Assembly: GCA_036397835.1 (NCBI GenBank)
Contig: DASWIG010000167.1
Span: forward strand, 1-30,942
Source: Thermoanaerobaculia bacterium
Lineage (GTDB): Bacteria > Acidobacteriota > Thermoanaerobaculia > Multivoradales > J023
DNA length: 30,942 nucleotides
Reading direction: 5' to 3'
Part shown: piece after piece, positions 345-29,994 of the stretch
Position numbering within the stretch: the stretch's first letter is position 1
Layout of the letters: each line of letters opens with the position of its first letter
The notes under the pieces: generated by a model
The model's database searches: none
The model's input: only the letters and a program-made list of their open reading frames with translations
Told to the model about the DNA's origin: nothing
Translations under genes and position numbers: made by a program

Positions 345-673
345 ATCTCGCCATGACGATCGCCACCGACCTCGCTCCCTCCTTCGCGACGCTCGCGGGC
401 GGCCCCACGCCGCGGTCGCGGCGGCTGCTCAACCGCGTGGCCGAGGATCCCCTGCGCGCCCTCGACGACCGGCGGTGCCAGAAGCCCGCGTTCTGCGATA
501 GCCGACGCGGACGCTGAGCGTGCCGAATTGTGGTGCAGCCGGCCCGGCTGCACCCGGAGCAGGCGGGACGCCTGCGCCACAATCTGGCAACTTCCCGCCG
601 GCGCGCATATGATGGACGCCTCGCGATCAGCGGGGCGCGGCCATCGTCCCGTATCTTCTCAGGTTGTCTTGCC

Positions 674-2989
674 ATGCGCACGATCTACCACGAGTTCGAG
701 TCCCTGGAGCACCTCCTGGCCACCCGCCTGCTGCCCGGAGGCGGCGACCGCCCGGTCCGCTTCGTGGTCTTCGGCGGCACCGGCGCGGTGGGCGGCGCCA
801 CCGTGCTCGAGCTGTGCCGCCTGATCCTCATGTCGCCGCGCTACCGCCAGCGGCCGCTGCGCGGCGAGGTCTACGCCACCGGCCTCCACGACAAGGAGAT
901 CGTCGGCTTCGTCAAGCGGCTCTACATGGCCTTCGAGGGCGAGGCCGAGATCGAGAAGATCGAGCCCCGGCGCCACTACCGGCTCCGCGGCGCCATCGAC
1001 CTCCGTTTCTCCCACCTCCACCTCACCCTGCCGCAGGACCTCCACCAGCACGTGCTGGCGGCGCGCGAGGCCGGCGGCGGCGCGTTCGACCCCGAGGCGG
1101 CGCTGGCCGAGTACTTCGAGTCGCAGCCCAAGCCCTTCCTGCGCTTCGTCGAGGCCCTCGGCGAGGAGGAGCTGCTGCACGCCGTGGTGGTGGCCATCCC
1201 CCTGCCCAGCGTCGCCACCTACACCCTCGAGTCGATCGACCGGCTCAACGCCGAGCTCGGCCTCGACCACAAGACGCTCAAGCACGTCAAGTCGAGCTAC
1301 CTGAAGACCTTCATCCGCGGCCTGGCCACCATCCAGCAACGCTACGCCCGCCACGTGGTCATGGCCCACACCACCGCCGTCGGCGGCATGTACCGGGTCG
1401 ACGGCGGCGCCGCCGAGATCCGCCTCGGCTTCGCCCACAGCGCCCTCGGCAAGAGACTGGTCGACAAGAAGTACTTCGCCGACGAGCTCACCCAGCTCTA
1501 CATCGACCACGGCTTCTACGTGCTGGTGACGGCGGCGGCGATCGGCATCGACGCGGTCGAGCTCCACTGCCACCTGCCCCTGGACCGCGGCGTCAGGAAC
1601 GCGCTCCGCCGCGCCGTGGACGCGCGCCCCGAGTCGCCGCCGCTGCCCGCCGCCGACCTCGAGCAGGGCAACGTCCTCGTCTACCCCGCCCTCGACCTGG
1701 CGCTGGAGCCCACGGCGGAGAGGAGCGGGGGGGAGACCACCGGGGAGAGCGAGCCGCTCGTCTTCGGCGCCGGCAAGGAGCTCGCGGTGGACGCGGCGAT
1801 CCGCTCGGGCGAGAACGGCCTCTTCTCGGTCGCCAACTGCGACGCCCTCTACAACGTGATGAAGGTGGCGATCCCCGAGGAGCTGGCCATGGTGCTGGTG
1901 CGCTTCGCCCTCTTCGGACCCGAGCGCCGCCGCGACTGGTTCCAGGACAACCTCTGCTACTACACCGAGACCGAGAACGCCCACTTCGCCCTGCAGCTCC
2001 TCTACAGCTATCCCGAGCTGCGCCGCGCCTGCTTCGGTCCCTTCGCGATCCAGGCCTACCAGGCCCTGGGCTCTTCCACCCACCAGGCGCGTCTCCACGA
2101 GCTGGGCCTCGTGATGGTGCTGCTGCGCCTGCGCGACCTCGGCGCCCGCTTCGCCGAGATCCCCGAGAAGGAGCTCGCCGAGGGCCTGACCGACGTCGAC
2201 GGTTTCCTCTGGCTGCACACCTCCATCCCCGCCTTCGAAGACTTCGAGGCGCTCGACGCCGCCCGCCTCGAGGCGCTCTTCGGCGCCCTGTGCGAGGTCG
2301 AGACCATGGAGGACGCCGGCCTGCTCCTGGGCTACGACCCGCGCCGGCACGGCCTGCGCGAGAGCGGCCGCGAGCGCTTCCTCGCCCGCCTCGCGACCCG
2401 TATCGGCCGCTACGTGAGGACCATCACCTCGCTCGGCATCCCGATCGTCTACCGCAGCCCCTCGAGCGGCCAGACCCGACTGCTCCTGGGGCCCTACGTG
2501 GCGCCGCTCGACGCCGCCGCCACCTCGACGCACGACGTCGACGCCGCCTTCCGCGGCCTCGCCGGCGAGCACGGCGTACCCTACGAGACGGCCCGCGACT
2601 GGGTGATCGCCAACAACGGCTTCGTGGACCTGCGCGCCCACGCCCTCGTGAGCGCCGCCAAGGAGCCGGGCCCGCGCATGGGCGAGGCCGTGCGCGGCCT
2701 GGCCTCGGCCGAGGAGCTCGCGGCGTGGATCGACGCCCTGCCGGCGGGCTCCTACTTCACCACCTGCGGGCTGGTGGCCCTCGAATACCGGCTGCGCCGC
2801 CTCTACGGCAAGGTGCGCAGACGCCAGATCCGCCTCGGCACCCGCGAGACCTGGAAGCACCTCTTCCCGCAGGACGGCCAGGGGCGTTACCTGCTCTCGC
2901 CGGGCCTGATCGAGACCGCGCGCATGTACTCGGAAGGCCTGGGCAAGGTCACCGGCACCGAGGCCCTGTGGCCGGGATGGGGGTATTGA
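674..2989 (+). CDS. Large (about 771 aa) uncharacterised protein with an N-terminal NAD(P)-binding Rossmann motif
   Basis: ORF 530..2989. The likely start is the ATG at 674 (MRTIYHEFESLEHLL). A Rossmann-type motif VRFVVFGGTGAVGGATVLEL sits near the N-terminus. Composition is diverse and non-repetitive, unlike the Ala/Arg/Gly-rich overlapping alternative frames. The C-terminal two-thirds has no family I can name. Confidence 0.6.
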   Translation: MRTIYHEFESLEHLLATRLLPGGGDRPVRFVVFGGTGAVGGATVLELCRLILMSPRYRQRPLRGEVYATGLHDKEIVGFVKRLYMAFEGEAEIEKIEPRRHYRLRGAIDLRFSHLHLTLPQDLHQHVLAAREAGGGAFDPEAALAEYFESQPKPFLRFVEALGEEELLHAVVVAIPLPSVATYTLESIDRLNAELGLDHKTLKHVKSSYLKTFIRGLATIQQRYARHVVMAHTTAVGGMYRVDGGAAEIRLGFAHSALGKRLVDKKYFADELTQLYIDHGFYVLVTAAAIGIDAVELHCHLPLDRGVRNALRRAVDARPESPPLPAADLEQGNVLVYPALDLALEPTAERSGGETTGESEPLVFGAGKELAVDAAIRSGENGLFSVANCDALYNVMKVAIPEELAMVLVRFALFGPERRRDWFQDNLCYYTETENAHFALQLLYSYPELRRACFGPFAIQAYQALGSSTHQARLHELGLVMVLLRLRDLGARFAEIPEKELAEGLTDVDGFLWLHTSIPAFEDFEALDAARLEALFGALCEVETMEDAGLLLGYDPRRHGLRESGRERFLARLATRIGRYVRTITSLGIPIVYRSPSSGQTRLLLGPYVAPLDAAATSTHDVDAAFRGLAGEHGVPYETARDWVIANNGFVDLRAHALVSAAKEPGPRMGEAVRGLASAEELAAWIDALPAGSYFTTCGLVALEYRLRRLYGKVRRRQIRLGTRETWKHLFPQDGQGRYLLSPGLIETARMYSEGLGKVTGTEALWPGWGY

Positions 2990-3048
2990 CGCCGCCGGAC
3001 CGAATCCGGCGTCGCGAATGAAGAGACGCGCGCCGGCGTATCGCAACG

Positions 3049-3720
3049 ATGATGACCGGGATCCTGGAAGTCCTCCACCACGCCTTCAGCATGCCGACCG
3101 CGATCTTCAGCGTTCTGCTGATCCTGGTCATCCTCTACTGGCTCGTTTCCCTCCTCGGCATCTTCAGCCTCGAGATGTTCGAGGCCGCCGAGGGTCTTGC
3201 GGACGGCGCCGCCGACGCCCTCGCCGAGGCCGGCGAAAGCCTGGGCGAGGCCGCCGAGGGCGAGCGCCCCGGCCTGCTGCGGGGCTTCGACGACGTGCCG
3301 CGCTCGATAAGCTGGAGCCTGGTCGTCGTCTTCGCCTGGCTCTTCAGCCTGCTCGCCACGATCTACCTGCCGCGCTACACCGAGGTCGCCATGCAGGGCC
3401 TGGCGGCCGTGGCCATGGTCGGCGCCGTGTCGCTCATGCTCGCCGTGGCGGTGACCGCCGTCGCTCTCCAGCCCCTGCGCAAGGTCCTGGTGGCGGGCTA
3501 CGGCCCCTCGCGCCACGACCTCGTGGGCCGCGTCTGCGTGGTGAGGACGCAGAGCGTGACGGACGATTTCGGCCAGGCCGAGCTCGACGACGGCGGCAGC
3601 ATCCTCCAGGTGCGCAACCCGCAGCACTACGACTTCACCGGAGGCTCGCGCGGCCTGATCTACGAGTACGACCCGGCCCGCGAGGTCTTCTACATCATGC
3701 CGATGGAAGACGACGGATGA
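3049..3720 (+). CDS. YqiJ-like (NfeD/DUF1449-like) inner-membrane protein
   Basis: Hydrophobic N-terminal and central segments (IFSVLLILVILYWLVSLLGIF; AVAMVGAVSLMLAVAVTAVAL) are followed by a soluble beta-rich C-terminus (VGRVCVVRTQSVTDDFGQAELDDGGSILQVRN). It lies 18 bp upstream of a flotillin gene, which is the classic yqiJ-yqiK (NfeD-SPFH) arrangement. Confidence 0.5.
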   Translation: MMTGILEVLHHAFSMPTAIFSVLLILVILYWLVSLLGIFSLEMFEAAEGLADGAADALAEAGESLGEAAEGERPGLLRGFDDVPRSISWSLVVVFAWLFSLLATIYLPRYTEVAMQGLAAVAMVGAVSLMLAVAVTAVALQPLRKVLVAGYGPSRHDLVGRVCVVRTQSVTDDFGQAELDDGGSILQVRNPQHYDFTGGSRGLIYEYDPAREVFYIMPMEDDG

Positions 3721-3738
3721 CGACTTGAGGAGCTCGAA

Positions 3739-5778
3739 ATGATTCCACTTCCGAGAAAGGTTCCGCAAGGAAAAGCGCTGATCATCAGCAACTTCGCGCG
3801 CGGGACGGTCAAGGTCAGCTTCACCGGCGCCCTGGTGGTTCCCTTCATCCACAAAGTGGAGGAGATGGACATCTCGGTCAAGACGATCGAGCTCGACCGC
3901 CGCGGCTCCGACGGCCTGATCTGTCAGGACAACATCCGCGCCGACATCAAGGTCACCTTCTTCGTGCGCGTCAACAACACGCAGGAGGACGTGAAGAAGG
4001 TGGCGCAGGCCATCGGCTGCGAGCGCGCCTCCGACCAGAAGACGCTCGAGGCGCTGTTCATCGCCAAGTTCTCCGAAGCGCTGAAGACGGTCGGCAAGGG
4101 TCTCGATTTCGTCGACCTCTACACCAAGCGCAAGGAATTCCGCGACCAGATCATCGCGGTGATCGGCACCGACCTCAACGGCTACTCGCTCGAGGACTGC
4201 GCCATCGACTACCTCGAGCAGACGCCGCTGGCCGAGCTCGACAAGGACAACATCCTCGACGCCCAGGGCATCCGCAAGATCACCGAGCTCACCGCCATCG
4301 AGCACGTGAGCACCAACGACTTCCGGCGCAACGAAGAAAAGCAGATCAAGAAGCAGGACGTCGAGGCCGCCGAGGCCATCTACGAGCTCGAGCGCCAGCA
4401 GGCCGACGCCGAGTCGAAACAGAAGCGCGAGATCGAGTCGGTGCGGGCGCGCGAGCAGGCCGAGACGCTCAAGGTGCAGCAGGAAGAGCGCCTCAAGGCC
4501 GAGACCGCGCGCATCAAGGCCGAGGAAGAGATCGCCGTCCAGGAACAGAACAAGCAGCGCCAGGTCGAGGTGGCGCAGAAGAACCGCGAGCGGGTCATCG
4601 CGGTCGAGACCGAGCGCGTGGAGAAGGACCGGGTGCTCGAGGTCATCTCCCGCGAGCGCGAGACCGAGCTCCAGCGCATCGCCAAGGACAAGGAGGTCGA
4701 GAACGAGAAACGCGAGATCGCCAACGTGATCCGCGAGCGCATCGCGGTGGAGAAGACGGTGGCCGAGGAGGAGGAGGCGATCAAGCGCCTGCGGGTGGTC
4801 GAGGAGGCCAACCGCACGCGCGAGGCCACGGTGATCACCGCCGAGGCCGAGGCCCAGGAGAAGCTGGTCAAGGACATCAAGGCCGCCGAGGCCGCCGAGA
4901 TCGCCGCCGGCCATCGGGCCAAGGAGCGGGTGGTCCTCGCCGAGGCCGAGGCCGAGGAGAAGAAGATCAGGGACGTCAAGGCCGCCGAGGCCGGCGAGGA
5001 GGCGGCCCAGTTCAAGGCCCGCGAGCTCATCGCGCTCGCCGAGGCCGAGCTGGAGACGACCGACCGCAAGGCGCGGGCGCGGGTGCGCATGGCCGACGCC
5101 GAGCGCGACGCGGCGGAGAAAGAGTCCGAGGGCAAGAAGCTGCTCGCCGAGGGCGTCCAGGCCGAGTCGGCGGCCGTCGGCCTGGCCGAGGCCCGGGTGC
5201 TGCGCCGCAAGGGCATGGCCGAGGCCACGGCGATCCGCGAGAAGATCAAGGGCGAGGCCGAGGGCCTGACCGACAAGGCCAAGGCCATGGCCTCCCTCGA
5301 CGAACGCAGCCGCCAGCACGAGGAGTACCGCCTGCGCCTCGAGATGGAGCGCGCCGTGGAGCTCGCGGGCATCGACGCGCGGCGGCAGGTCGCCGAGGCC
5401 CAGGCCGTGGTGCTCTCCGACGGCCTCAAGAACGCCAAGATCGACATCGTCGGCGGCGAGTCGATCTTCTTCGACCGCCTGGTCAACGCCGTCTCGATGG
5501 GCAAGTCGGTCGACGGCTTCCTCAGGAGCGACGGCGGACGCACGCTCTTCAAGGACTACCTGGACGGCAAGGCGAGCTTCGCGGACGACCTGAGGAGCGT
5601 GCTCACCCGCCCCGCCCTCGACGCCGGCAAGGTCCGCGACCTGACGCTCGCGGCCTTCCTCGGCAAGGCGATGGCGTCGGCCGAGGGCGAGGAGAAGAGC
5701 AAGCTCGACCAGATCGCGCAGATCGTCCAGCGGCTGGGGCTCGACCAGGTGAAGGTCGGAGACTTGGGCGGCGAGTAG
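3739..5778 (+). CDS. Flotillin / SPFH (band-7) family protein, YqiK-like
   Basis: An N-terminal membrane hairpin and SPFH domain (ISVKTIELDRRGSDGLICQDNIRADIKVTFFVRV...) are followed by a long Glu/Ala/Arg/Lys-rich coiled-coil (EA-repeat flotillin tail). It is 679 aa, has a clean start with an upstream GGAG, and ends at TAG 5776-5778. Confidence 0.8.
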   Translation: MIPLPRKVPQGKALIISNFARGTVKVSFTGALVVPFIHKVEEMDISVKTIELDRRGSDGLICQDNIRADIKVTFFVRVNNTQEDVKKVAQAIGCERASDQKTLEALFIAKFSEALKTVGKGLDFVDLYTKRKEFRDQIIAVIGTDLNGYSLEDCAIDYLEQTPLAELDKDNILDAQGIRKITELTAIEHVSTNDFRRNEEKQIKKQDVEAAEAIYELERQQADAESKQKREIESVRAREQAETLKVQQEERLKAETARIKAEEEIAVQEQNKQRQVEVAQKNRERVIAVETERVEKDRVLEVISRERETELQRIAKDKEVENEKREIANVIRERIAVEKTVAEEEEAIKRLRVVEEANRTREATVITAEAEAQEKLVKDIKAAEAAEIAAGHRAKERVVLAEAEAEEKKIRDVKAAEAGEEAAQFKARELIALAEAELETTDRKARARVRMADAERDAAEKESEGKKLLAEGVQAESAAVGLAEARVLRRKGMAEATAIREKIKGEAEGLTDKAKAMASLDERSRQHEEYRLRLEMERAVELAGIDARRQVAEAQAVVLSDGLKNAKIDIVGGESIFFDRLVNAVSMGKSVDGFLRSDGGRTLFKDYLDGKASFADDLRSVLTRPALDAGKVRDLTLAAFLGKAMASAEGEEKSKLDQIAQIVQRLGLDQVKVGDLGGE

Positions 5779-5808
5779 CCTGCCGCGACACCCACGCCTC
5801 AAGAAAAA

Positions 5809-5835
5809 CCGCGGCGCTCAAGAGCAGCGCCGCGG
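5809..5835. terminator. Perfect 10-bp GC-rich hairpin right after the flotillin stop (terminator-like)
   Basis: ccgcggcgct (5809-5818), loop caagagc, agcgccgcgg (5826-5835). An A-run (agaaaaa) precedes it. There is no T-run on the + side, so it may be a non-canonical or bidirectional element. Confidence 0.4.
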
Positions 5836-5844
5836 AAACGATCG

Positions 5845-5962
5845 GAGGCGCTGAACCTGGCACAGCCGGGCGCGCTCGCCGGCGTCGATCGCCAGCTTCC
5901 TGGAGGCGGCCGGCGCGGCGGCGCTGGAGCTGGCCGGCAAGATCCTGGTGCGGCGGAGCTGA
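5845..5962 (+). pseudogene. 3'-terminal remnant (about 115 bp) of a paralogue of the acidic gene at 22925..23403 (minus strand)
   Basis: Nucleotide alignment with the reverse complement of 22925..23045 matches apart from a few mismatches and two single-base indels in the 5' part. The last 28 codons are in frame and encode PASIASFLEAAGAAALELAGKILVRRS*, versus ...AGRILVRRS* in the other copy. There is no start codon and no upstream ORF. The 5' part has lost the frame. Confidence 0.6.
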
Positions 5963-5982
5963 CGCGGAACCCTCACCCCCGG

Positions 5983-6005
5983 CCCCTCTCCCAGGGGGAG
6001 AGGGG
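5983..6005. repeat. GC-rich stem-loop cccctctccc-agg-gggagagggg
   Basis: Perfect 10-bp inverted repeat (5983-5992 / 5996-6005). The same CCCTCTCC...GGAGAGG hairpin motif recurs at 16246..16271. Confidence 0.5.
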
Positions 6006-6379
6006 AGTCGGATCTGATGGATGTTCGAGCCGGGGGGAGGATTTGGACGGCGTCAGCCGTCCGGAAATCCCCCCTCGGTCCCTTTGTCAAAGGGGGGAGG
6101 TGGACTCCTCGCTGGCGCCTCGGGGCCCGAGGCTCGGCAGGCTCCGCGGGCACCGTTTGGGATGTCGAGTCAGCCATCTTGCTGCTCTCAGTCCAGCTCG
6201 AAGAGGACGATTCCCTCCCGGGCGTCCTTGACAAGCGCAAGCCCTGCGGTCCTCAAGGACGGATCGGTCATTGAGGACTTCGTCCTCGAATGGATCGTTC
6301 TCCGCGTCGAAGCCGCGGATCGGCAGGCCCAGTCTGCCCTACGAGAGCCTCGCCATTCGTTCGTGCTAGGCTTTGCGGG

Positions 6380-7261
6380 ATGTGCCCGAGCCGGCGGCGT
6401 CCGACCCTTTTCACCCTCGCCCTGTACACCCTCCTCGCGGCGCTCACGGGTCCGGCGGCCCAAGCGGCGGACCGGTTCTACGAAGACCTCCTGCGCGAAG
6501 GCATCCTGACGGCGGAGCGCGGCGACGCGCCGCGCGCCGCGCGTCTCCTGCGCCTGGCCTGCTTCGGCCTGCTCGAGGAGCCGCCGGCCTTGGCGCGTTG
6601 CCTCGCCCATCTCGCCCTGGCGCAGGCGAGCCTCGACGACGGCGACGCCTTCTTCGCCACGTTCCAGCGCGTGCTCGAGATCGAGCAGCGCTTCTCCGCG
6701 TACAGCCGCGCCGAGCTCGGCGACGAGGCGCGCCGGCGATTCGAGGGCGCCCTTCGCGAGCGGGTCTCGCCCGAGGTCCTCGCGCGCTCGCCGGCCTTCC
6801 GCCATCTCGCCCAGGATGCGACCTCCGAGGTGGTGACGGACGAAGACAACGGCCCGCCCGTTTCGGCGCCCCCCAGGAGCTTGCCGCGGGAGGTGACGGC
6901 GGCGATCATCCACGCCCGCGAGGTCCGGGGCACGGCAAGCCGCGACGAGATCCTGCGCGAGCTCGAGGCCCTGCGTCCCCTGGCCGACGCCCATCCCAGG
7001 GTGGGGGAGCTGCAGCTCCTGACCGCGGAGCTCGCCTACCGGGTGCGGCGGTGGGAGGAGAGCCGGGCCTACTTCGAGCGGGGCGAGATCCGTCCCGACC
7101 AGCCGGCGCTCGCCTTCTACTTCGCCGTGACGCTCTACGAGACCGGCGAGACGAAGCGCGCGGTGGAGGTCCTGGAGCAGTGCCTGCCGCGTCTGCGCCG
7201 CAACCCCTTCGTCGACGAGTACGCGGCGAAGATCCTGGGCGCGGGCGCCGGGGGAGGCTGA
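6380..7261 (+). CDS. Secreted alpha-helical, TPR-like hypothetical protein
   Basis: ORF 6290..7261. The likely start is the ATG at 6380, giving a signal-peptide-like N-terminus MCPSRRRPTLFTLALYTLLAALTGPAAQAADRF. The body is helical and Leu/Ala/Arg/Glu-rich. It converges on topA with a 6-bp gap. Confidence 0.5.
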   Translation: MCPSRRRPTLFTLALYTLLAALTGPAAQAADRFYEDLLREGILTAERGDAPRAARLLRLACFGLLEEPPALARCLAHLALAQASLDDGDAFFATFQRVLEIEQRFSAYSRAELGDEARRRFEGALRERVSPEVLARSPAFRHLAQDATSEVVTDEDNGPPVSAPPRSLPREVTAAIIHAREVRGTASRDEILRELEALRPLADAHPRVGELQLLTAELAYRVRRWEESRAYFERGEIRPDQPALAFYFAVTLYETGETKRAVEVLEQCLPRLRRNPFVDEYAAKILGAGAGGG

Positions 7262-9994: not shown

Positions 9995-11059
9995 TCACAG
10001 GAGCTCGGCGGCGTGCCGGGCCGCCCCGAGCAGCCCGACCTTAGAGTCGAGCACCACGTGGACGGGCACCCGTTCGAGCAGGGGCGCCATCCGTCCCTTG
10101 TCCTTGAACGCCGCGATGAAGCCGTCGCGCTCGAGCAGCGGCAGGATCTTGGGGGCGATGCCGCCGGCCACGTAGAGGCCGCCGTAGGGCAGCAGCTTGA
10201 GGGCCAGGTTGCCGGCCTCGGCGCCGTAGGCCCCCACGAAGACGTCCATGGTCTCCGTGCACAGCGGCTCGTCCTCGGCGATCGCGGCCTGCGACACCAC
10301 CGCCGCGAGGTCCACCGTCGGGCTCTCCTTGCCGATCTCCCGCTTCCAGGTCTCGAAGGCGGCGGCGAGCGCCGCGGACTCTCGCGCGGTGCCGCGCAGG
10401 CGCAGGAGCTCGTAGATCGAGGCGATGCCCTGGCCCGAGACCACCCGCTCCACCGAGACCCGGGTCAGTTGCAGGCTCTCGCGCAGGAAGCCGAGGAGCT
10501 CGATCTCGAGCGGCGAGCGCGGCGCGAAGTCGGTGTGGCCGCCCTCGGTGGCGAAGACCCGGTGCCCCGCGGGCGCGGGGATCAGGAACCCTTCGCCCAG
10601 GCCGGTGCCGGCGCCGATGACGGCGATCGGTGCCTCGGGCTCGTGGCGGCCGGCCTGCAGGGTGTGGAGCGCCGCCGGGGGCAGCGCGGTGACGCCGTGG
10701 CCGATGGCGGTGAAGTCGTTGATCAGCTCGACGCGGGCGATGGCGAGCTCGCGGGCCAGCCGCTCGCCGGCGAGCGTCCAGGGGAGGTTGGTCACCCGGC
10801 TGGTGTTGGCGGCGACCGGGCCGGCGACGCCGAAGCAGGCGGCCGCGGGCCGCGCTCGCCCGCCGGTCTCGGCCGCCGCGGCGGCCAGGAACTCCACCAC
10901 CATCGGCGCCAGGCCGGAGTAGGCCTTGCTCGCGTACGTCCGCTCGGCGCGCGCCGTGAGCAGCCCGCCGCGCGTCTCGACCAGGCGCAGGATCGTCTTC
11001 GTACCGCCGATGTCTCCGGCCAGCAGCGTCACCATTCTCCTCAGGCTCTCGTCTTCCAC
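9995..11059 (-). CDS. glk: Glucokinase (Glk family)
   Basis: N-terminal LLAGDIGGTKTILRL matches the Glk ATP-binding motif (compare E. coli LVGDVGGTNARLAL). Length is about 345 aa. The start may be the internal Met at 11035 (MVTLLAGDIGG). Confidence 0.8.
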   Translation of the reverse strand: MEDESLRRMVTLLAGDIGGTKTILRLVETRGGLLTARAERTYASKAYSGLAPMVVEFLAAAAAETGGRARPAAACFGVAGPVAANTSRVTNLPWTLAGERLARELAIARVELINDFTAIGHGVTALPPAALHTLQAGRHEPEAPIAVIGAGTGLGEGFLIPAPAGHRVFATEGGHTDFAPRSPLEIELLGFLRESLQLTRVSVERVVSGQGIASIYELLRLRGTARESAALAAAFETWKREIGKESPTVDLAAVVSQAAIAEDEPLCTETMDVFVGAYGAEAGNLALKLLPYGGLYVAGGIAPKILPLLERDGFIAAFKDKGRMAPLLERVPVHVVLDSKVGLLGAARHAAELL

Positions 11060-11172
11060 GCTCCTTCGGCTCCGCGTAGAGCGTAGAGTATAGGCGGCGG
11101 ACGCTGCGCCTCGCTCGTCCGTAGACTCATCGGAGCCTCTGCTGACCGAGGCCCGGCCACAGGAGCACGCAC

Positions 11173-12351
11173 ATGACCACAGCGCCCATGACCGCCGAGG
11201 ACGTTTCCGTCGCAGAGAACGCCGCCCCGGGGGCCGCGTCGGCGCCGCGGGCGTTCGAGGAGATCAAGCCGCCGCTGATCTTCGACGAGCTGCGTCACGG
11301 CGTGCTGGGGCAGGACAAGGCCTTGCGCTTCGTCGCCGTCGCCATCTTCAAGCACACCACCGGCAAGGTGCCGGGCAACCTGATGATGATCGGCAATTCG
11401 GGCACCGGCAAGACGACGGTCATGAACAACATCCAGCGGCTCTACAACACGGTGCCCGAGTACCGACCGTTCCGCGCCGTGACCATCATCAACGCCAACC
11501 TGCTGGTCGACGGCGACCGCATGGAGTTCCGTCCCGAGCGGCTGCTCTCGGCCGTCGAGCAGCGCGCCCGCGCGATCGCCGGCGCCCAGCCTTCGCCCGA
11601 GGCCCTCAAGGCGGCGATGGAGCGCGCCACGATCTGCATCGACGAGATCGACAAGATGGCCGCGGTGGTGGCCGGCAAGCCCAATCCGATCGGGGTGATC
11701 CTGCAGCAGGGCCTGCTGACGATGATGGAGGGCGAGACCATCGCCTACCCGGCCCACGTCTGGTTCCACGGCGAGGAGCGCCGGACGACGCTGGAGATCG
11801 ACACCGGCCGCATCATGTTCATCTGCGGCGGCGCCTTCGAGGGCCTCTACGACCAGGTCTACAACCGCGTGCTGAAGCCCGGCAGCGGCGAGAAGCTGCG
11901 CACCCAGACGATCCGCACGGCCGAAGGGCAGGTGCGCATCGAGACCCGCTTCGAGCTCGGCGATTACCTGAAGCCCAAGGACCTCTTCGAGTTCGGCATG
12001 GTGCCGCAGTTCATGGCGCGTTTCGAGAACACCGTGCTGCTCTACGACCTCTCCCACAAAGTGCTGAAGGAGATCCTGCTGAAGTCGTACGAGTCGCCTT
12101 TCGTGCGCTCGCGCCGCTTCTTCAAGGTGATGGACATCGCCCTCGAGATCGACGAGCTCGCCGCCGCCCTGATCGCCGAGGAGGCGGTCAAGGACAGCCG
12201 CACCGGCGCCCGCGCGCTGCGGCCGATCTTCGCCGAGATCGTCAACCCCCTGGAGTTCGACCCCTGGCACAGCGAGGCGCTCGTCAAGCGGCCCGAAGGC
12301 GGTCACCTGCTGCGCATCACGGCCGACATGGCGCGCCAGGTGTTGAAGTAG
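11173..12351 (+). CDS. ClpX-paralogous AAA+ ATPase lacking the N-terminal zinc-binding domain, with divergent pore and ClpP-docking loops
   Basis: Walker A GNSGTGKTT and Walker B ICIDEIDKM are present. Extended colinear similarity to ClpX includes ILQQGLLTMMEGE (compare GVQQALLKLIEGT), IMFICGGAFEGL (compare ILFICGGAFAGL), FGMVPQFMARF (compare FGLIPEFIGRL) and the sensor-2 RTGARALRPI (compare KTGARGLRSI). There is no C4 zinc finger. Where ClpX has GYVG, this has ...NLLVDGDRME.... Where ClpX has GSGIGF, this has GSGEKL. AGGAG lies 6 nt upstream of the ATG. Confidence 0.75.
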   Translation: MTTAPMTAEDVSVAENAAPGAASAPRAFEEIKPPLIFDELRHGVLGQDKALRFVAVAIFKHTTGKVPGNLMMIGNSGTGKTTVMNNIQRLYNTVPEYRPFRAVTIINANLLVDGDRMEFRPERLLSAVEQRARAIAGAQPSPEALKAAMERATICIDEIDKMAAVVAGKPNPIGVILQQGLLTMMEGETIAYPAHVWFHGEERRTTLEIDTGRIMFICGGAFEGLYDQVYNRVLKPGSGEKLRTQTIRTAEGQVRIETRFELGDYLKPKDLFEFGMVPQFMARFENTVLLYDLSHKVLKEILLKSYESPFVRSRRFFKVMDIALEIDELAAALIAEEAVKDSRTGARALRPIFAEIVNPLEFDPWHSEALVKRPEGGHLLRITADMARQVLK

Positions 12352-12367: not shown

Positions 12368-13453
<1,086 letters not shown>

Positions 13454-13585
13454 GGCCGCGTATCTTAGCGCCCCGGCGGCGATTCGGGTAAGATCGCGGC
13501 GATCTCCTAGGAGGGAGTGTGCTCGCGGTCGGACAGGTCTGACTCGTCCGACGATTTCGGCCGGCTGGAGACGGTGGAGGACACG

Positions 13586-14866
13586 ATGAAGGTACTGGTC
13601 GTCGGATCCGGAGGCAGGGAGCACGCGCTGTGCTGGAAGCTGCGCCAGAGCCCCTTGCTCGAGGAGCTCTACTGCGCTCCCGGCAACCCCGGCATCGCCG
13701 AGGTCGCCGATCTGGTGCCGATCGCGGCGGACGAGATCCACAAGCTCCTCGACTTCGCCACCGACCTCGGCGTCGACCTGACCGTGGTCGGTCCCGAGCT
13801 GCCCCTCACCCTCGGCATCGCCGACGACTTCGCCCAACGCGGCCTGCCGCTCTTCGGGCCCCGCCAGCAGGCCGCCGAGCTCGAGGGCAGCAAGGTCTTC
13901 GCCAAGGAGTTCATGCGCCGGCACGGCATCCCGACGCCCGACTTCCGGGTCGCCCACGACGCCGAGGAGGCGCGGCGGGCCGCCGCCGGCTTCGGCTTTC
14001 CGGTGGTGCTCAAGGCCGACGGCCTGGCCGGCGGCAAGGGCGTGATGATCGCCGAGGGCCAGGACGAGCTCGAGCGCATGATCGCCGTGTTCTTCGAGGA
14101 GCGCCGCTTCGGCGCCGCGGGGGGGCGCGTGGTGGTCGAGGAGCACGTGGACGGCGAGGAGCTCTCCTTCATCGCCCTCTGCGACGGCGAGCGCGTCCTG
14201 CCGCTCGCGACCTCCAAGGACTACAAGCGCCTCGAGGACTTCGACCGCGGCCCCAACACCGGCGGCATGGGCGCCCACAGCCCGGCCGGGGTGCTCACCG
14301 CCCAGGCCTCGACCGACGTCTACGACCGCGTGGTGCGCCCCACGGTGGCGGGCCTGGCCGCCGAGGACCGGCCCTACGTGGGGGTGATCTACGCCGGCCT
14401 GATGATGACCGCCGACGGGCCGCGGGTGCTCGAGTACAACGTGCGCTTCGGCGATCCCGAGGCCCAGGCCCTGCTGCTGCGCCTCGAGTCGGACCTGCTG
14501 CCGGTGCTCGCCGCCGGCGCCGCGGGCCGCTTCGACACGGCGCGGCTCAGCTTCAAGAAGGAGGCCTCGGCGTGCCTGGTGCTGGCCAGCTCGGGCTACC
14601 CGCGCCACCCGGTGAAGGGCGAGCCGATCTCGGGGCTGGAGGCGGCGCGGCGCCACGAGGGCGTGGAGGTCTTCCACGCCGCCACCGCGCTGCGCAAGGG
14701 GCAGCTCGTCGCCGCCGGCGGCCGGGTCTTGAACGTCTGCGCCACCGGGCCGCACCTGCGCGACGCCCTCAAGCTGGCCTACCTGGCGGCGGCCGAGATC
14801 CACTGGCCGAGCAAGGTGATGCGCCGCGACGTCGGCCGCCGGGTGCTGGAGAAGGCGGCGGGTTGA
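13586..14866 (+). CDS. purD: Phosphoribosylamine--glycine ligase
   Basis: MKVLVVGSGGREHALCWKL... is the canonical PurD start, with GGAGGA upstream. The ATP-grasp core follows (VVLKADGLAGGKGV..., EYNVRFGDPE). Length is 426 aa. Confidence 0.9.
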   Translation: MKVLVVGSGGREHALCWKLRQSPLLEELYCAPGNPGIAEVADLVPIAADEIHKLLDFATDLGVDLTVVGPELPLTLGIADDFAQRGLPLFGPRQQAAELEGSKVFAKEFMRRHGIPTPDFRVAHDAEEARRAAAGFGFPVVLKADGLAGGKGVMIAEGQDELERMIAVFFEERRFGAAGGRVVVEEHVDGEELSFIALCDGERVLPLATSKDYKRLEDFDRGPNTGGMGAHSPAGVLTAQASTDVYDRVVRPTVAGLAAEDRPYVGVIYAGLMMTADGPRVLEYNVRFGDPEAQALLLRLESDLLPVLAAGAAGRFDTARLSFKKEASACLVLASSGYPRHPVKGEPISGLEAARRHEGVEVFHAATALRKGQLVAAGGRVLNVCATGPHLRDALKLAYLAAAEIHWPSKVMRRDVGRRVLEKAAG

Positions 14867-14942
14867 ACGCCGCCGGCCGCTCACTGTCGGAAGCTCGCCG
14901 TCGGACGCTCACGGACGGGCTCTGCACCGGATCGCGGACCAT

Positions 14943-17907: not shown

Positions 17908-19533
17908 TCAGCCGTCCTCGCTCAGGCGTTGCAGGTTCCGGAGCGCCAGCTCGTTGTTCGGGCTGATGCGCAGGAGACGCTCGAACAGCTCCCGTGCCTC
18001 TTCCTTCTCCCCCTTCATCATCACCACCACGGCGAGGTCGTTGAGCGCCGGCACGTGCTCGGGGACGAGCTCGAGCGCGCGGCGCAGGTCCTGCTCGGCG
18101 GCGGCCGCGTCCTCGAGGGCCATGCGGACGACGCCGCGCTGGTAATAGGCGTCGACGTTGTCCGGGAAGCGCTCGACCGTGGCCTCGCACGAGCGCAGCG
18201 CGTCCTCGTAGCGCTCGAGCGAGGCCAGCAGCCGCACCTCGAGCAGCCGCGGACGCACGTCGTCCGGCGTCAGCGCGATCTCCTGGCGCAGCACCGCCAG
18301 GGCCTTCTGCGGCTCGCCGCCCGCCACCGCTTCCTGGACCTCGCGCAGCAGCTCGTTCACGGGATCCTGCGCCGCCGCCTCGGCCGCCTGCCGGCGGGCC
18401 TGCGCTTCCTCGGCGAGCCGGCGGAGGCTCTCGCGGGCCGCGCCCGCCTCGGCGTCTCGTCCGGCGGCGGTCAACGCCTCGCCCAGGCTCTCCCACGCGA
18501 GCTGCTCCCGCGGCCCGATCTCGGCCGCCCTCTCGAGATACGGGAGGGCGTCGGCGGCCCGGCCCGTCGACGCCAGCGCACGGCCGTAGTCGAGGAGCAC
18601 CCGGTAGGCGACGGGACCGCCGGCGGACGCGTGCGACGTCACCTGGCGGGCGAACGGCTCGAGCGCGGCGGCGGCCGCGGCGAGGTCGCCGCCCTCGCGG
18701 TGTGCTTCGGCCAGCAGCAGGGCGAGGCGCGGGTCGCCGTCCACCCGGCCGTCGAGCAGCGCCACCGCGTCGCCCGCCCGGCCCACGCGGAGGTAGCTGC
18801 CGGCGAGCACCCGGAGCACGTCGGTGCGCAGCTCGGGCGGCGCGGCCTCGCGCAGGCGCTCGAGCGCCACGATGGCGCTCTGGGGGTCGCCGGTCTGGCT
18901 CAGGTACTGCGCGCGCAGCAGGGCCACGCGCGGCTCGTCGGGCAGGCCCTGGAACAGGGGTGCCACCTCTTCGCCGTGTCCGAGCGTCAGGCCGGCGGCG
19001 ATGAGGGCGATCCGCGCCGGCACGTCGCCGAGGTTCTGCGCCACCCACGCGCGCAGCAGCAGGAAGGAGTCCGCCACCCGACCCTGGGCGCCGCGCAGGA
19101 GCCCCAGCTCGCGGGTGGCGGGCGAGACCGCCACCTTGGCGACCGAGCGCTCGAGATAGGCCTCGGCCGCCGCGGCTTCGCCCACGGCGAGGGCCGCGCG
19201 CCCGGCGTTGTAGAGCACCGCGGGATCGGCCGCCTCGCCGTCGGCCACCGCCCGCAGCGCGTCCAGGGCCTCGGCGGCGCGGCCCGCCTCGAGGTAGAGC
19301 GTGCCCAGGAGCGCCAGGTCCACGTGGGTGGCGGCGCCGGTCTGCCGCTGCCGTTCGAGGAGCTCGATCGCTCCCGTCGCGTCGTCCTGCCGGAGCCGTT
19401 CGTAGGCCTGCCGGCCGACCTCCGAGAACTCGGCCGGGTTCTGGGCCGGCGCCTCGCTCTGGGCGAGGGCCGAGGCGGCGGCGAGGACGGCGCCGAGCAG
19501 AAATGGGATGAGGCGGTTGGCTTGGGTCGGCAT
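17908..19533 (-). CDS. Secreted TPR-repeat protein
   Basis: The ATG at 19533 gives a signal peptide MPTQANRLIPFLLGAVLAAASALAQSEA. The body is all TPR-like helical repeats (AxxYxxLG..A pattern). The track's longer version, starting at 19623, adds an Arg/Pro-rich leader that is unlikely to be real. Confidence 0.65.
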   Translation of the reverse strand: MPTQANRLIPFLLGAVLAAASALAQSEAPAQNPAEFSEVGRQAYERLRQDDATGAIELLERQRQTGAATHVDLALLGTLYLEAGRAAEALDALRAVADGEAADPAVLYNAGRAALAVGEAAAAEAYLERSVAKVAVSPATRELGLLRGAQGRVADSFLLLRAWVAQNLGDVPARIALIAAGLTLGHGEEVAPLFQGLPDEPRVALLRAQYLSQTGDPQSAIVALERLREAAPPELRTDVLRVLAGSYLRVGRAGDAVALLDGRVDGDPRLALLLAEAHREGGDLAAAAAALEPFARQVTSHASAGGPVAYRVLLDYGRALASTGRAADALPYLERAAEIGPREQLAWESLGEALTAAGRDAEAGAARESLRRLAEEAQARRQAAEAAAQDPVNELLREVQEAVAGGEPQKALAVLRQEIALTPDDVRPRLLEVRLLASLERYEDALRSCEATVERFPDNVDAYYQRGVVRMALEDAAAAEQDLRRALELVPEHVPALNDLAVVVMMKGEKEEARELFERLLRISPNNELALRNLQRLSEDG

Positions 19534-19643
19534 CACGGGTCCCCCTGAGTGTGTGAAAGGCGCCGGCCGCAATCGAGGGGGTGGTTCGTTGAGGTATTCT
19601 CGCGGTCGGCGGTGCGCCGGCAAGACGAACGGCGTAAGGAAGG

Positions 19644-20783
19644 ATGATAATGTACGCGGCCCTACGGCGCGGAACGATCGTGGTCTGGATCGCCTGCTCG
19701 GCGGTGCGAGCGGTGCCGGCGCAGGCGGGCACGGAGGAGCTGCTGGCGCGCGCCGCCGCCGACCTCACGGCCGGCCGCTTCGCCGCCGCGGAAATAGTCT
19801 ACCGCGAGCTCGCCGCGCGCCAGCCGGGTCTGATCGACGCCCACCGCGGCCTGTCGCGGGCGCTCGCCGCGCAGCAGCGCCGGAGCGAGGCCGCCGCGGT
19901 GCTCGGCGGTCTCGGCGAGGGTCTCCTGGGCGCGGGACGGCACGCCGCCGCCGCCGAGGTGCTCGGCGAGGCCGCGGAGCTCGCCGCCGCGGACCCTCGC
20001 CTCCAGGCGCTGCTGGGCAAGGCCCGCCTCTTCGCGCAGAGCCCGCAAGCGGCCATCGCGCCGCTCGAGCGCGCCCGCGAGCTCGGCGACGCCAGCCTCC
20101 TCACCCGCCTCTACCTCGCCGCCGCCCTGTGGGAGAGCGGACGCCCGGAGGCCGCCGAGAGGCTCTACCGCGAGCTCGTCGCCGGCGCCGCCGGGCCTTT
20201 CGCCGCCGTCCACCAGCTCGGCCGCCTGCTGCTCTGGCAGGGCCGCTTCGCCGAGGCCGCGCCGCTGCTCGAGCGGGCCGCCGCCGAGCGTCCCGCCGCC
20301 GCCGACGTGCGCTTCGACCTGGCGCAGGCCCTGGCCGGCGCCGGCGAGCTCGACGGCGCCCTCGCCGCCTACCGGCGCACCGTGGAGCTCTCGCCCGGCC
20401 ACTACAAGGCCTTCTACGGCCTCGCCCGCGTGCTGGCGCGGCTTGGCGGCCAGGACGCCGCCGCCCGCGAGGCCCTCGCCACCTACCAGCGCCTCTACGC
20501 CGCCGAGCAGGAGGCGACGCGGCGCGAGAACCTGGAGCGCGCCCGCCTCGACCGCGGCTGGAAGGCGATCGAGGACGGCGCCTACCGCGAGGCGATCGGC
20601 CTTTTCGAGCGTCTCGGCGCCAGTCCCGAGGCCCTTGCCGGCACCGCCGCCGCCTGGACGCTTCTCGGCGATCCGGCGCGCGCCGCCGAGCACCTCGAAC
20701 GGGCGGTGGCCCTGGCGCCGGAGCGCGAGGACCTGCGGCGTCTGCTCGCCGAGGCCCGGCTGGCGGCCGGTGGAGATACCTGA
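19644..20783 (+). CDS. TPR-repeat protein (secreted or periplasmic)
   Basis: The N-terminus MIMYAALRRGTIVVWIACSAVRAVPAQAG is signal-like, and AAGGAAGG lies upstream. TPR-like repeats run throughout. Its stop overlaps the next gene's start (TGATG). Confidence 0.6.
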   Translation: MIMYAALRRGTIVVWIACSAVRAVPAQAGTEELLARAAADLTAGRFAAAEIVYRELAARQPGLIDAHRGLSRALAAQQRRSEAAAVLGGLGEGLLGAGRHAAAAEVLGEAAELAAADPRLQALLGKARLFAQSPQAAIAPLERARELGDASLLTRLYLAAALWESGRPEAAERLYRELVAGAAGPFAAVHQLGRLLLWQGRFAEAAPLLERAAAERPAAADVRFDLAQALAGAGELDGALAAYRRTVELSPGHYKAFYGLARVLARLGGQDAAAREALATYQRLYAAEQEATRRENLERARLDRGWKAIEDGAYREAIGLFERLGASPEALAGTAAAWTLLGDPARAAEHLERAVALAPEREDLRRLLAEARLAAGGDT

Positions 20784-22411: not shown

Positions 22412-22426
22412 TTCCGGGAACCGGGG

Positions 22427-22760
22427 TGCAGGCGCTGCAATGCACCTCGGCCAATTCCCGAAACTGGATTGCAGGCACTGCATCGCACCTTCGCCAATTG
22501 CCGGAAGTGCGCTGCAGGGTCTGCAACGCACTTTTGCCAATTGAGGAAGTAGCATTGCAGGCACTGCAGCGCACCCTGCCAATTGCCGGAAGTGCGTTGC
22601 AGCGGCTGCAACGCACCTCTGCCAATTGAGGAAGTTGCATTGCAGGAGCTGCAGCGTACTTCTGCCAATTCACAGAAGCGCATTGCAGAGGCTGCAGCGC
22701 TACTTTCCTAATCGAGGCAATAGCGTTGCAGAGGCTGCAACGTCACGGTCACGGCGGTGC
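22427..22760. repeat. Intergenic tandem array of about 8 copies of a 42-43-bp palindromic unit (not CRISPR)
   Basis: Units start at 22427, 22470, 22513, 22556, 22598, 22641, 22684 and 22727. Each contains TGCAGNNNCTGCA(N)CGCAC, which together with the preceding GTGCG forms an 11-bp-arm inverted repeat (GTGCGCTGCAG-N3-CTGCAGCGCAC). An 18-20-bp linker follows, carrying GCCAATTG (CAATTG palindrome). Linkers alternate between two variants (..ccggaagtgcg. and ..aggaagtWgcat), which points to an 86-bp higher-order repeat. The terminal copies are degenerate. Confidence 0.85.
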
Positions 22761-23555: not shown

Positions 23556-25491
<1,936 letters not shown>

Positions 25492-25499
<8 letters not shown>

Positions 25500-26745: not shown

Positions 26746-26770
26746 CGGATTCTACCAAAGTGAGAGTGTG

Positions 26771-29658
<2,888 letters not shown>

Positions 29659-29659
<1 letters not shown>

Positions 29660-29994
29660 TGAGTCGAGCGACGGCGACGGCCGTGGCCGAGTGGGCGCCG
29701 CTCGAGGACGCGGTGAGCAAGGACGTGCTGCGAGCCGAGATCCGGGTCTGGGCGGATCGGATCGGCGTGGAGGCTAAAGAGGTCCACATCCGTCCGATGC
29801 GTCGCAAGTGGGGCAGTTGCTCCACGGCTGGGCGGGTGACGTTCAGCTTGGACCTCCTCGTCGAGCCGGCGGAATTCCGCAAGCGGGTGATCGTCCACGA
29901 GCTGCTGCACCTGAAGGTGCCGAACCACGGCAAGCTGTTCCGGGCGTTGTTGCGAGCGTACACGGATTCAGGCGAGTCTCCGTCCTCTCCCTGA
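29659..29994 (+). CDS. DUF45 / YgjP-like (M48-related) zinc metallopeptidase, short form
   Basis: The WGSCS motif is followed by the HExxH-containing segment VIVHELLHLKVPNHGKLF, as in the YgjP/DUF45 family. It is translationally coupled to hsdR (TAATG). DUF45 genes are commonly found next to type I hsd operons. Confidence 0.65.

Follow-up and report, generated by a model that had tools for sequence, protein, structure and literature searches.

What can a ClpX-type ATPase do once the parts with which ClpX grips its substrates and docks on its protease have been exchanged? ClpX is among the best-understood unfolding motors, and the very elements that define its mechanism are the ones replaced in the protein studied here, which is encoded within the window (the whole 30,942-nt stretch of Thermoanaerobaculia DNA that was analysed) at the following position:

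11161..11165, + strand: Shine–Dalgarno sequence AGGAG, 7 nt before the ATG (direct reading of the sequence)
11173..12351, + strand: coding sequence of the ClpX-like AAA+ ATPase, 392 aa, TAG stop (ORF list)
9995-11059, - strand: glk, divergent from the ClpX-like gene, with a 113-nt spacer
12368-13414, - strand: IF-2B/MtnA-type gene, convergent with the ClpX-like gene, with a 16-nt gap

As an earlier, sequence-only reading had claimed, the gene has its own Shine–Dalgarno sequence and stands alone, being monocistronic with opposite-strand genes on both sides; in a Myxococcales metagenome-assembled genome (MAG) it is monocistronic as well. The GC content at third codon positions (GC3) of the ORF is 0.96. 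A scan for promoters and terminators around the gene found none.

The window protein is a ClpX-derived AAA+ module, and its likeness to ClpX goes far beyond chance. It matched the NCBIfam ClpX model PRK05342 with 129 bits (E = 2e-37), and a phmmer search of the PDB aligned residues 36-355 to ClpX at E = 1e-24. Comparing the family profile with the ClpX profile in hhalign gave a probability of 100% over 331 columns (E = 8e-62). An AlphaFold2 (AF2) monomer model of the 392-aa protein (mean pLDDT 89.6) has the fold of ClpX: the best 50 matches in a Foldseek search of the PDB were all ClpX, with TM-scores of ∼0.5–0.8, mostly 0.7–0.8 when normalised to the target. To judge from these searches, ClpX is its only close relative. 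The distance is nonetheless considerable, as both ClpX equivalog models were missed on score (PRK05342, cutoff 359; TIGR00382, 97 bits versus a cutoff of 370.75), and identity amounts to 28–30% between the family and the canonical ClpX representatives in our alignment and to 21–26% with solved ClpX structures. HMM, profile–profile, structure-prediction and family-wide evidence thus agree on the colinearity with the ClpX AAA+ module that had been read from the letters, and all motifs quoted in that reading are present. The protein has an HCLR-clade AAA+ core with Walker A and B, Arg finger and sensor-2:

11392..11418, + strand: Walker A, GNSGTGKTT (residues 74–82); G74, G77, G79, K80 and T81 invariant in the family and ClpX
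11632..11655, + strand: Walker B, ICIDEIDK (154–161); D157, E158, D160 and K161 invariant
11818..11847, + strand: FICGGAFEGL box (216–225), common to ClpX and the window protein; F216 and G220 invariant, G219, A221, F222 and E223 nearly so
11992..12021, + strand: FGMVPQFMAR box with Arg finger R283 (274–283); G275 and R283 invariant in the family and ClpX
12205..12222, + strand: sensor-2, GARALR (345–350); G345, A346, R347 and L349 invariant
12253..12264, + strand: family signature EFDP (361–364) in a C-terminal extension of the small domain; within the family, E361 invariant and P364 nearly so

In the joint alignment of the family and ClpX, no variation was seen at G74, G77, G79, K80, T81, D157, E158, R283 or R347. 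At the EFDP position, the same alignment shows M(Y/F)(D/E)xP in ClpX.

Outside this engine, the elements that define ClpX are missing or exchanged:

11173..11247, + strand: variable N-terminal tail (residues 1–25) at the place of the ClpX C4 zinc-binding domain (ZBD); low pLDDT, high entropy
11491..11538, + strand: pore-1-loop equivalent NANLLVDGDRMEFRPE (107–122), placed by MAFFT and hhalign alignments
11668..11718, + strand: pore-2-loop equivalent VAGKPNPIGVILQQGLL (166–182), in place of ClpX TRDVSGEGVQQALL (alignments)
11734..11805, + strand: pre-sensor-1 beta-hairpin (188–211), with model strands 189–198 and 201–210
11881..11898, + strand: GSGEKL (237–242) at the position equivalent to IGF (hhalign; phmmer alignment to E. 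coli ClpX)
11902..11958, + strand: family-specific beta-hairpin TQTIRTAEGQVRIETRFEL (244–262), at the place taken in ClpX by the rest of its flexible IGF loop

At the N-terminus, the alignment of ClpX to the window protein begins past the ZBD in both MAFFT and hhalign. Residues 1–21 are disordered in the AF2 model (pLDDT <50), residues 1–25 are unconserved (column entropy 2.77 versus 0.88 overall), and the N-terminus contains no Cys; among the 118 close relatives, none has at least three Cys in its first 70 residues. A split ZBD ORF was sought across all six frames of the whole window, by a regular-expression scan and by tblastn with ClpX N-termini, and none was found, in line with the earlier claim that the domain is absent. 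In the pore-1 loop, ClpX GYVG aligns onto D115-R116-M117-E118 within LLVDGDRME (110–118), and careful alignment revealed no hidden aromatic loop, so that the proposed replacement of GYVG stands. The family consensus here is NANLLVD.dRmEFrP.R (entropy 0.45), and G[YFW][VILM]G occurs in 0 of 118 close relatives. Beside the tip of the loop, the close family conserves M117 and F119, whereas distant members do not. The pore-2 segment, in which ClpX TRDVSGEG has become AGKPNPIG, is among the best-conserved segments (entropy 0.40). By alignment, the tip of the pre-sensor-1 hairpin reads HVWFHGEERR at the position of the ClpX RKH loop, and RKH was found in none of the 118 close relatives, a loss that the sequence-only reading had not mentioned.

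The IGF position was likewise confirmed as replaced. In the hhalign alignment, I corresponds to S238, G to G239 and F to L242, with a two-residue insertion (E-K), and no (I/L/V)G(F/L) tripeptide emerged on careful alignment; [ILV]G[FLY] was present at this position in 0/118 close relatives. The Gly is retained there, as is a hydrophobic side chain (L242). The hairpin that follows (strands 243–248 and 254–259, pLDDT ∼81–89 in the AF2 model) has the conserved family pattern tirTA.G.Vr.etrF.L, and the IGF-loop region is predicted to be ordered, not flexible. Compared with ClpX, the window protein also carries family-specific insertions at residues 93–103 and 137–152.

ZBD, GYVG, RKH and IGF are missing not only from the window protein but also from 118 of 118 close relatives and from distant relatives at 36–42% identity. 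By column entropy, the replaced loops exceed the average conservation of the protein, and the pore loops rank with its best-conserved segments. They are therefore functional, not decaying; the conservation indicates that a new function is under purifying selection.

All relatives that we found come from uncultured MAGs. Close-family members from Acidobacteriota (Thermoanaerobaculia, Holophagae) are 68–86% identical to the window protein and those from Myxococcota 55–62%, and more distant branches of the clade occur outside these two phyla. In a neighbour-joining (NJ) tree, close and distant members form one clade, apart from 45 canonical ClpX representatives. Its signatures are a length of ∼365–395 aa, no N-domain, an acidic NAN-x-L pore-1 loop, a (G/D)KP-x-x-x-G-I/V-x-x-Q pore-2 loop, FEYGM-x-PQF-x-x-RF and a C-terminal EF(D/N)P; the window protein carries all of them, and they are conserved in close and distant members (P0001-P0138-type relatives). 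On sequence grounds, this group appears to be a sister family of ClpX, distinct and so far uncharacterised. Pfam and NCBIfam hold no specific model for it, and automatic pipelines label its members ‘AAA family ATPase’ or, wrongly, ‘ClpX’. Full-text searches of the literature turned up no description of the family; the nearest item was ClpX3 of Myxococcus xanthus.

The genomic neighbourhood offered little guidance. The sequence-only reading had placed the gene between glk and mtnA, divergent from glk; position and orientation are right, but the arrangement is not kept in any relative and carries no functional information. Indeed, 13 neighbouring genes of the window (530-20783, including topA, glk, mtnA, purD and pckA) recurred in none of 80 genome loci. 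Neighbour clustering detected no family-wide conserved neighbour, the contexts of distant members share nothing, and only clade-restricted partners emerged: an M29 aminopeptidase, a 227-aa protein (not in the window), an FHA-HTH regulator and an LD-carboxypeptidase. Searching the window and 91 related loci with flanks of 6–8 kb by tblastn (92 sequences, 1.19 Mb), we found neither clpP nor a canonical clpX within ±8 kb. Two further candidate contexts were rejected. For an anti-phage defence role, PADLOC gave just a 20-bit P-loop match to DolB, and for a phage origin, the sole PHROGs match was to a generic family of ClpX-like proteins with no known function, and the gene lies among housekeeping genes.

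Taken together, we consider it probable that the window protein is a ClpP-independent, client-specific remodelling ATPase. Since the complete ClpX-type engine is kept, with large and small AAA+ domains, Walker A and B, Arg finger and sensor-2, it most likely assembles into a hexameric ring that hydrolyses ATP. ZBD, GYVG paddle, RKH loop, pore-2 loop and IGF loop have all been swapped for strongly conserved, family-specific sequence, and the protein most likely acts as an ATP-driven remodelling machine, or ‘activase’, independently of ClpP. Its re-tooled axial loops and the beta-hairpin on the bottom face would be specific for a single conserved client or a small number of them, and arbitrary polypeptides would not be threaded into a protease. 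That the protein is not a ClpP partner and acts in remodelling or through an adaptor had been suggested from the letters alone; with no clpP near ∼90 loci and strong purifying selection on the replaced loops, this is the most reasonable view, although it is one that we infer.

A challenge comes from a gene for an M29 aminopeptidase (Peptidase_M29, Pfam E = 5e-47), which lies directly upstream and on the same strand in 33 of 74 close-family loci in an apparent operon arrangement. Of these, 32 could be placed: the spacing ranges from -22 to +136 nt in the 22 scored upstream, and the remaining 10 overlap more deeply. This could point to a peptidase-linked role for the family, with the ATPase as the unfolding component of a bipartite protease that it would form with either this aminopeptidase or a ClpP bound through S-G-E-K-L and the beta-hairpin. 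Residual docking of S-G-E-K-L to some partner pocket is conceivable given the Gly and the hydrophobic residue that persist at the IGF position, and M117 and F119, as conserved residues beside the tip of the pore-1 loop, might retain a grip on polypeptides. However, the M29 linkage is confined to one subclade; no M29 gene was found in the window (tblastn), in its nearest relatives (L001-L017), in the Myxococcota member or in any distant branch. To our knowledge, M29 enzymes do not form ring-shaped, chambered peptidases. Furthermore, no ClpP was encoded near any locus searched, IGF is destroyed by the I-to-S exchange and the insertion in a loop that is predicted to be ordered, and the wider family has no conserved aromatic–hydrophobic pair in pore-1. 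We therefore regard such a protease as rather unlikely.

To a similarly low degree, the protein may be a dedicated activase for one metabolic enzyme, for example a TIM-barrel enzyme of sugar metabolism, by analogy with Rubisco activases; this would be a narrower form of the remodelling ATPase that we favour. In a distant branch (P0124/P0393), the ATPase is fused at its C-terminus to a xylose-isomerase-like TIM barrel (AP_endonuc_2, E = 2e-29) in four members on independent contigs, one of them of 395 kb, and genes for carbohydrate enzymes adjoin scattered members: glk in the window, an alpha-amylase 3 nt upstream at one locus (L086) and GH125 at another (L081). A precedent exists in mitochondrial ClpX, which activates ALAS (PMC7077987). 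The fusion, however, is limited to a single branch, the adjoining enzymes differ by branch with none conserved, and such neighbours are expected by chance in GC-rich, gene-dense genomes.

It is very unlikely that the protein is the organism's only ClpX, a minimal form without the N-domain that still serves ClpP; the label ‘paralogue’ in the sequence-only reading presupposes that the genome also encodes a canonical clpX–clpP pair. ClpX variants that lack the N-domain do exist (e.g. P0262), but these keep GYVG and IGF, whereas GYVG, RKH and IGF are missing here; the wide margin to the ClpX equivalog cutoff, the separate clade in the NJ tree and the absence of an adjacent clpP from all loci searched also count against it. 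As far as we know, ClpXP is near-universal in bacteria. In Myxococcota, moreover, multiple ClpX genes are documented (PMC11423568). Finally, a decaying, functionless clpX duplicate with drifted loops would account for the simultaneous loss of several functional motifs, but this is effectively refuted by the conservation data, given the identities within Acidobacteriota and Myxococcota, the above-average conservation of the replaced loops, the invariant catalytic residues, and an intact ORF with high GC3 and a Shine–Dalgarno sequence.

The ClpP-independent remodelling ATPase that we favour can be extended, more tentatively, to a ring that does without both aromatic-paddle threading and ClpP docking, in which a new set of charged axial loops, fixed by selection, and a collar of bottom-face hairpins remodel one specific, conserved client, and which would represent a new functional class of the HCLR clade in Acidobacteriota and Myxococcota. 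Its client might then be a metabolic enzyme, as in the TIM-barrel fusion, or a peptidase, as in the M29 operon of a large subclade. A family across two phyla in which the engine is kept and the tools are swapped is a natural experiment on the capabilities of a ClpX-type ring without protease threading, and recognising it would correct the annotation of thousands of metagenomic proteins. It would also point to a new function in proteostasis or enzyme activation among bacteria of soil and sediment that are abundant and mostly uncultured.

Among known systems, canonical ClpX is typically encoded in tig-clpP-clpX linkage; its ZBD binds adaptors and substrates, and its RKH loop recognises degrons. 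With the E. coli protein (PDB 6WRF, 3HWS), the window protein shares the large and small AAA+ fold, in colinear order over the whole length that follows the ZBD, as well as Walker A and B, the FICGGAF box, the FG(M/L)xP(E/Q)F-xxR Arg-finger box and the GARxLR sensor-2, and in the model it retains the pre-sensor-1 beta-hairpin. Unlike canonical ClpX, it has no ZBD, D-R-M-E in place of GYVG, a replaced RKH tip and pore-2 loop, and S-G-E-K-L plus an ordered hairpin in place of IGF. HslU (ClpY), a related single-ring AAA+ ATPase of the HCLR clade, has no IGF loop either, but carries a large I-domain insertion and docks on HslV via its C-terminal tail; the model of the window protein contains no I-domain, and its NCBIfam HslU score was 45 bits against a cutoff of 362. 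In ClpX itself, Y153 of the pore-1 GYVG grips the substrate, and the IGF loops must be flexible for docking to ClpP (PMC9035409).

The closest described case is M. xanthus ClpX3 (MXAN_2743), an extra ClpX-like gene isolated from clpP and without the zinc domain or the RKH motif, which is dispensable for growth and has heat sensitivity at 36 C as its only known phenotype (PMC11423568). The window protein resembles it in all three respects, having no N-terminal domain, no RKH and no clpP nearby, and ClpX3 occurs in Myxococcota, one of the phyla carrying the sister family. ClpX3, however, is 43.5% identical to E. coli ClpX and annotated as clpX by NCBI (PMC11423568, which is silent on the state of its pore-1 and IGF loops), whereas the sister family reaches 28–30% with canonical ClpX representatives and is named only ‘AAA family ATPase’. 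When the 120 nearest relatives of a Myxococcales member of the family were retrieved, none came from M. xanthus. From its description, ClpX3 probably belongs to a different lineage of ClpX without the N-domain, similar to P0262. For function, a precedent for a non-proteolytic, client-specific ClpX derivative is mitochondrial ClpX (yeast Mcx1), which acts on ALAS by partial unfolding, independently of ClpP (PMC7077987). It is no close sequence relative of the sister family, and because partial unfolding means pore-loop threading, it presumably keeps the aromatic pore-1 loop that the family described here has lost.

The ClpX-like AAA+ ATPase of 392 aa is encoded by an ORF at 11173–12351 (+), which is present in the ORF list and whose codon-position GC pattern (GC3 = 0.96, in a window of roughly 70% GC) is that of a genuine gene. 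As the sequence-only reading had proposed, the gene lies divergent from glk and next to mtnA, and every motif quoted there was found in its place. The immediate surroundings are as follows.

9995–11059 (−), glucokinase gene (Pfam Glucokinase, E = 3e-104), divergent from the ClpX-like gene
11161–11165 (+), Shine–Dalgarno motif AGGAG, 7 nt before the ATG of the ClpX-like gene
12368–13414 (−), IF-2B/MtnA-type isomerase gene (E = 3e-79), convergent with the ClpX-like gene

Further genes around it include topA, purD and pckA. Mechanical listing also gave an 838-aa ORF at 12368–14884 (−), of which only the C-terminal 348 aa are the real IF-2B/MtnA-type gene; the remainder was rejected as a spurious high-GC extension antisense to purD (13517–14866, +).

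Elsewhere in the window, four consecutive ORFs at 530–7261 (+), of 819, 223, 679 and 323 aa, are confidently coding (GC3 0.89–0.96) and had no Pfam match at E ≤ 1e-5. A 967-aa ORF at 19508–22411 (+) carries FG-GAP and UnbV_ASPIC domains confined to its C-terminal half (from about 21.1 kb), and a 380-aa ORF with strong TPR matches (19644–20783, +) overlaps its N-terminal half in a different frame. Since TPR, FG-GAP and ASPIC domains frequently occur within one protein, a frameshift, a sequencing error or a pseudogene junction may lie near 20.8 kb. The gene-poor stretch at 22364–22743 holds an array of roughly 43-nt, mutually inverted units (spacings 43/43/85/43/43), with 117-nt arms (22427–22543 and 22580–22696) that are 71% complementary and a palindrome at 22580–22628. 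It had no Rfam match, no tRNA was found anywhere in the window, and it resembles a cluster of REP/MITE-like palindromic repeats. A type I restriction-modification locus occupies 23556–29994.

23556–25499, hsdM
26738–29659, hsdR
29659–29994, YgjP-like metallopeptidase

GC content at 25–27 kb falls to 57%, compared with about 70% elsewhere in the window, which probably marks either the hsdS region or an island acquired by horizontal transfer.

Colinearity with the ClpX AAA+ module, claimed from the sequence by eye, was borne out by profile and structure comparisons. Pfam assigned only generic AAA domains (AAA_2, E = 8e-10), and the top-ranking NCBIfam model was ClpX (PRK05342; 129 bits, E = 2e-37), far under its equivalog cutoff of 359. 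HslU was rejected, since the I-domain is missing and the NCBIfam score for that family is only 45 bits. The best PDB-sequence matches were ClpX chains of E. coli and others (E = 1e-24), colinear over residues 36–355. Aligning a family-only profile to a canonical-ClpX-only profile with hhalign gave a probability of 100% (E = 8e-62) over 331 columns, from just C-terminal to the ClpX zinc domain to the C-terminus. A confident AlphaFold2 model built from the family alignment (mean pLDDT 89.6, pTM 0.84) had ClpX as all of its best 50 Foldseek matches in the PDB (TM-scores about 0.5–0.8, identity 21–26%). The protein is thus, beyond reasonable doubt, a ClpX derivative.

Across 34 aligned family and ClpX sequences, the catalytic core is invariant: Walker A (G74, G77, G79, K80, T81), Walker B (D157, E158), F216 and G220 of the FICGGAF box (G219, A221 and F222 nearly so), the arginine finger R283, and sensor-2 G345, A346 and R347. 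The N-terminal zinc-binding domain (ZBD) is missing; residues 1–21 have pLDDT < 50, residues 1–25 are unconserved, and no split ZBD gene is present within the window. Careful alignment places D115-R116-M117-E118 opposite the pore-1 loop GYVG and S238-G239-(E240-K241)-L242 opposite the ClpP-docking tripeptide IGF. HVWFHGEERR occupies the pre-sensor-1 hairpin tip, where ClpX has the degron-recognition loop RKH, and AGKPNPIG replaces the pore-2 loop TRDVSGEG. The rest of the IGF-loop region was modelled as an ordered β-hairpin (strands 243–248 and 254–259, pLDDT about 81–89); the IGF loop of ClpX is a flexible tether whose mobility ClpP docking needs (PMC9035409). None of 118 full-length close relatives had at least three cysteines within residues 1–70, a G[YFW][VILM]G motif, [ILV]G[FLY] in the IGF region, or RKH. 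With neither misaligned loops nor a split ZBD gene to account for the absences, the anatomy described in the sequence-only reading is correct. As the family lacks every ClpX-specific membership feature except the common AAA+ core, it should not be filed as ClpX.

Column entropies in a 178-sequence close-family alignment (mean 0.88) were low at the equivalents of pore-1 (0.45; consensus TiiNANLLVD.dRmEFrP.R) and pore-2 (0.40; vvAGKPN.iGVVLQQGLL), on a par with those of Walker A (0.27) and Walker B (0.19), and average at the IGF-equivalent segment (0.91). M117 and F119, next to the pore-1 tip, are kept in the close family; distant members (36–42% identical) have no conserved aromatic there. By this conservation, the loops are re-tooled rather than decayed.

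A word-indexed search returned thousands of matches, of which the best 120 were 68–100% identical, about 380–395 aa long and, where named, labelled only 'AAA family ATPase' (NCBI) or automatically 'ClpX' (JGI). When 1.84 billion 50%-identity representatives were searched exhaustively, only 48 reached E < 1e-30. The close family had one full-length representative (P0121); a handful of 365–373-aa relatives at 36–42% identity (P0127, P0129, P0130, P0135–P0138) and one 716-aa fusion (P0124) were also found, with canonical ClpX next at about 100 bits. In a neighbour-joining tree, the window protein and its close and distant relatives grouped into a single clade, separate from 45 canonical ClpX representatives, of which nearly all have the ZBD, GYVG and IGF. 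Species-representative genomes with close relatives are almost all uncultured, belonging to Acidobacteriota (Thermoanaerobaculia, Holophagae, Ca. Sulfomarinibacteraceae, Ca. Multivoradales), a few Myxococcota and one Methylomirabolota MAG; Thermodesulfobacteriota hold one distant branch. A second search seeded with a Myxococcales member again returned only MAG proteins. MAG isolate Bpl_12 (JAAELT01) carries two copies on separate contigs (L005, L034; 74% and 79% identical to the window protein), reflecting either within-genome duplication or a mixed bin. We found no paper describing this family. The window protein represents a sister family of ClpX that is well conserved but uncharacterised, and whose functional loops have been re-tooled.

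No window neighbour recurs beside a homologue in 80 genome loci. At 33 of 74 loci, a Peptidase_M29 aminopeptidase gene (Pfam E = 5e-47; e.g. L051:6671–7912) lies directly upstream on the same strand, with gaps of −22 to +136 nt at 22 loci and deeper overlap of the ATPase start at another 10. Downstream, at lower frequency, lie recG and genes for a 227-aa protein that has no Pfam match, a regulator with FHA and Fis-HTH domains, and an LD-carboxypeptidase. The M29 block is limited to one subclade (loci L018–L075), and is missing from the window and its nearest relatives, from a Myxococcales member whose gene, as in the window, is monocistronic, and from all distant members examined. In the P0124/P0393 branch, the ATPase continues at its C-terminus into a xylose-isomerase-like TIM barrel (AP_endonuc_2, E = 2e-29; e.g. 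L092:8001–10115); the fusion is genuine, occurring in four members on independent contigs, of which one measures 395 kb. At its N-terminus P0124, the member checked, also has a short CxxC...CxC cluster. P0130, a distant Acidobacteriota member, has an 80-aa zf-CDGSH iron–sulfur protein gene (L083:5762–6004) that overlaps the ATPase start (L083:6001–7122) by 4 nt, suggesting translational coupling, with thrS and a CarD-like gene on either side of the pair.

With its residues for nucleotide binding and inter-subunit catalysis intact, the protein is predicted to form an ATP-hydrolysing ring, following the AAA+ literature (for ClpX, PMC9035409). General ClpP-coupled unfolding is disfavoured by loss of the tyrosine paddle that touches the substrate at two-residue intervals, of the degron contacts made by RKH and pore-2, of the zinc domain and of the flexible IGF tether, and because clpP is genomically unlinked: across the window and the 91 loci retrieved (1.19 Mb), no gene for ClpP or canonical ClpX was found. 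The substituted loops are under strong selection, which argues for a putative new and specific binding role on the axial face and on the face that formerly met ClpP. Together, what was lost and what was conserved make a client-specific, ClpP-independent remodelling ATPase the favoured reading, which we hold with moderate confidence; mitochondrial ClpX, which activates ALAS through partial unfolding (PMC7077987), is a functional precedent. Only two hints to a client or partner emerged, the operon with M29 and the fusion to a TIM barrel; both are clade-restricted, and they diverge in direction. The former hints at a non-canonical peptidase partner, the latter at an enzyme activase; we keep both as rivals or refinements of the remodelling reading, and regard each as rather unlikely. 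That the protein is the organism's only ClpX is very improbable, and a decaying duplicate is scarcely credible given pore-loop equivalents more conserved than the close-family mean.

For a paradigm motor, the family is a clean natural experiment, and it exposes a widespread annotation gap. The closest studied protein in character is Myxococcus xanthus ClpX3 (MXAN_2743), which likewise lacks the N-domain and RKH and is encoded by an isolated, deletable gene whose loss causes heat sensitivity (PMC11423568). ClpX3 is 43.5% identical to EcClpX, is annotated clpX at NCBI and was missing from the nearest relatives found for a Myxococcales family member, and therefore probably represents a different N-domain-less ClpX lineage.
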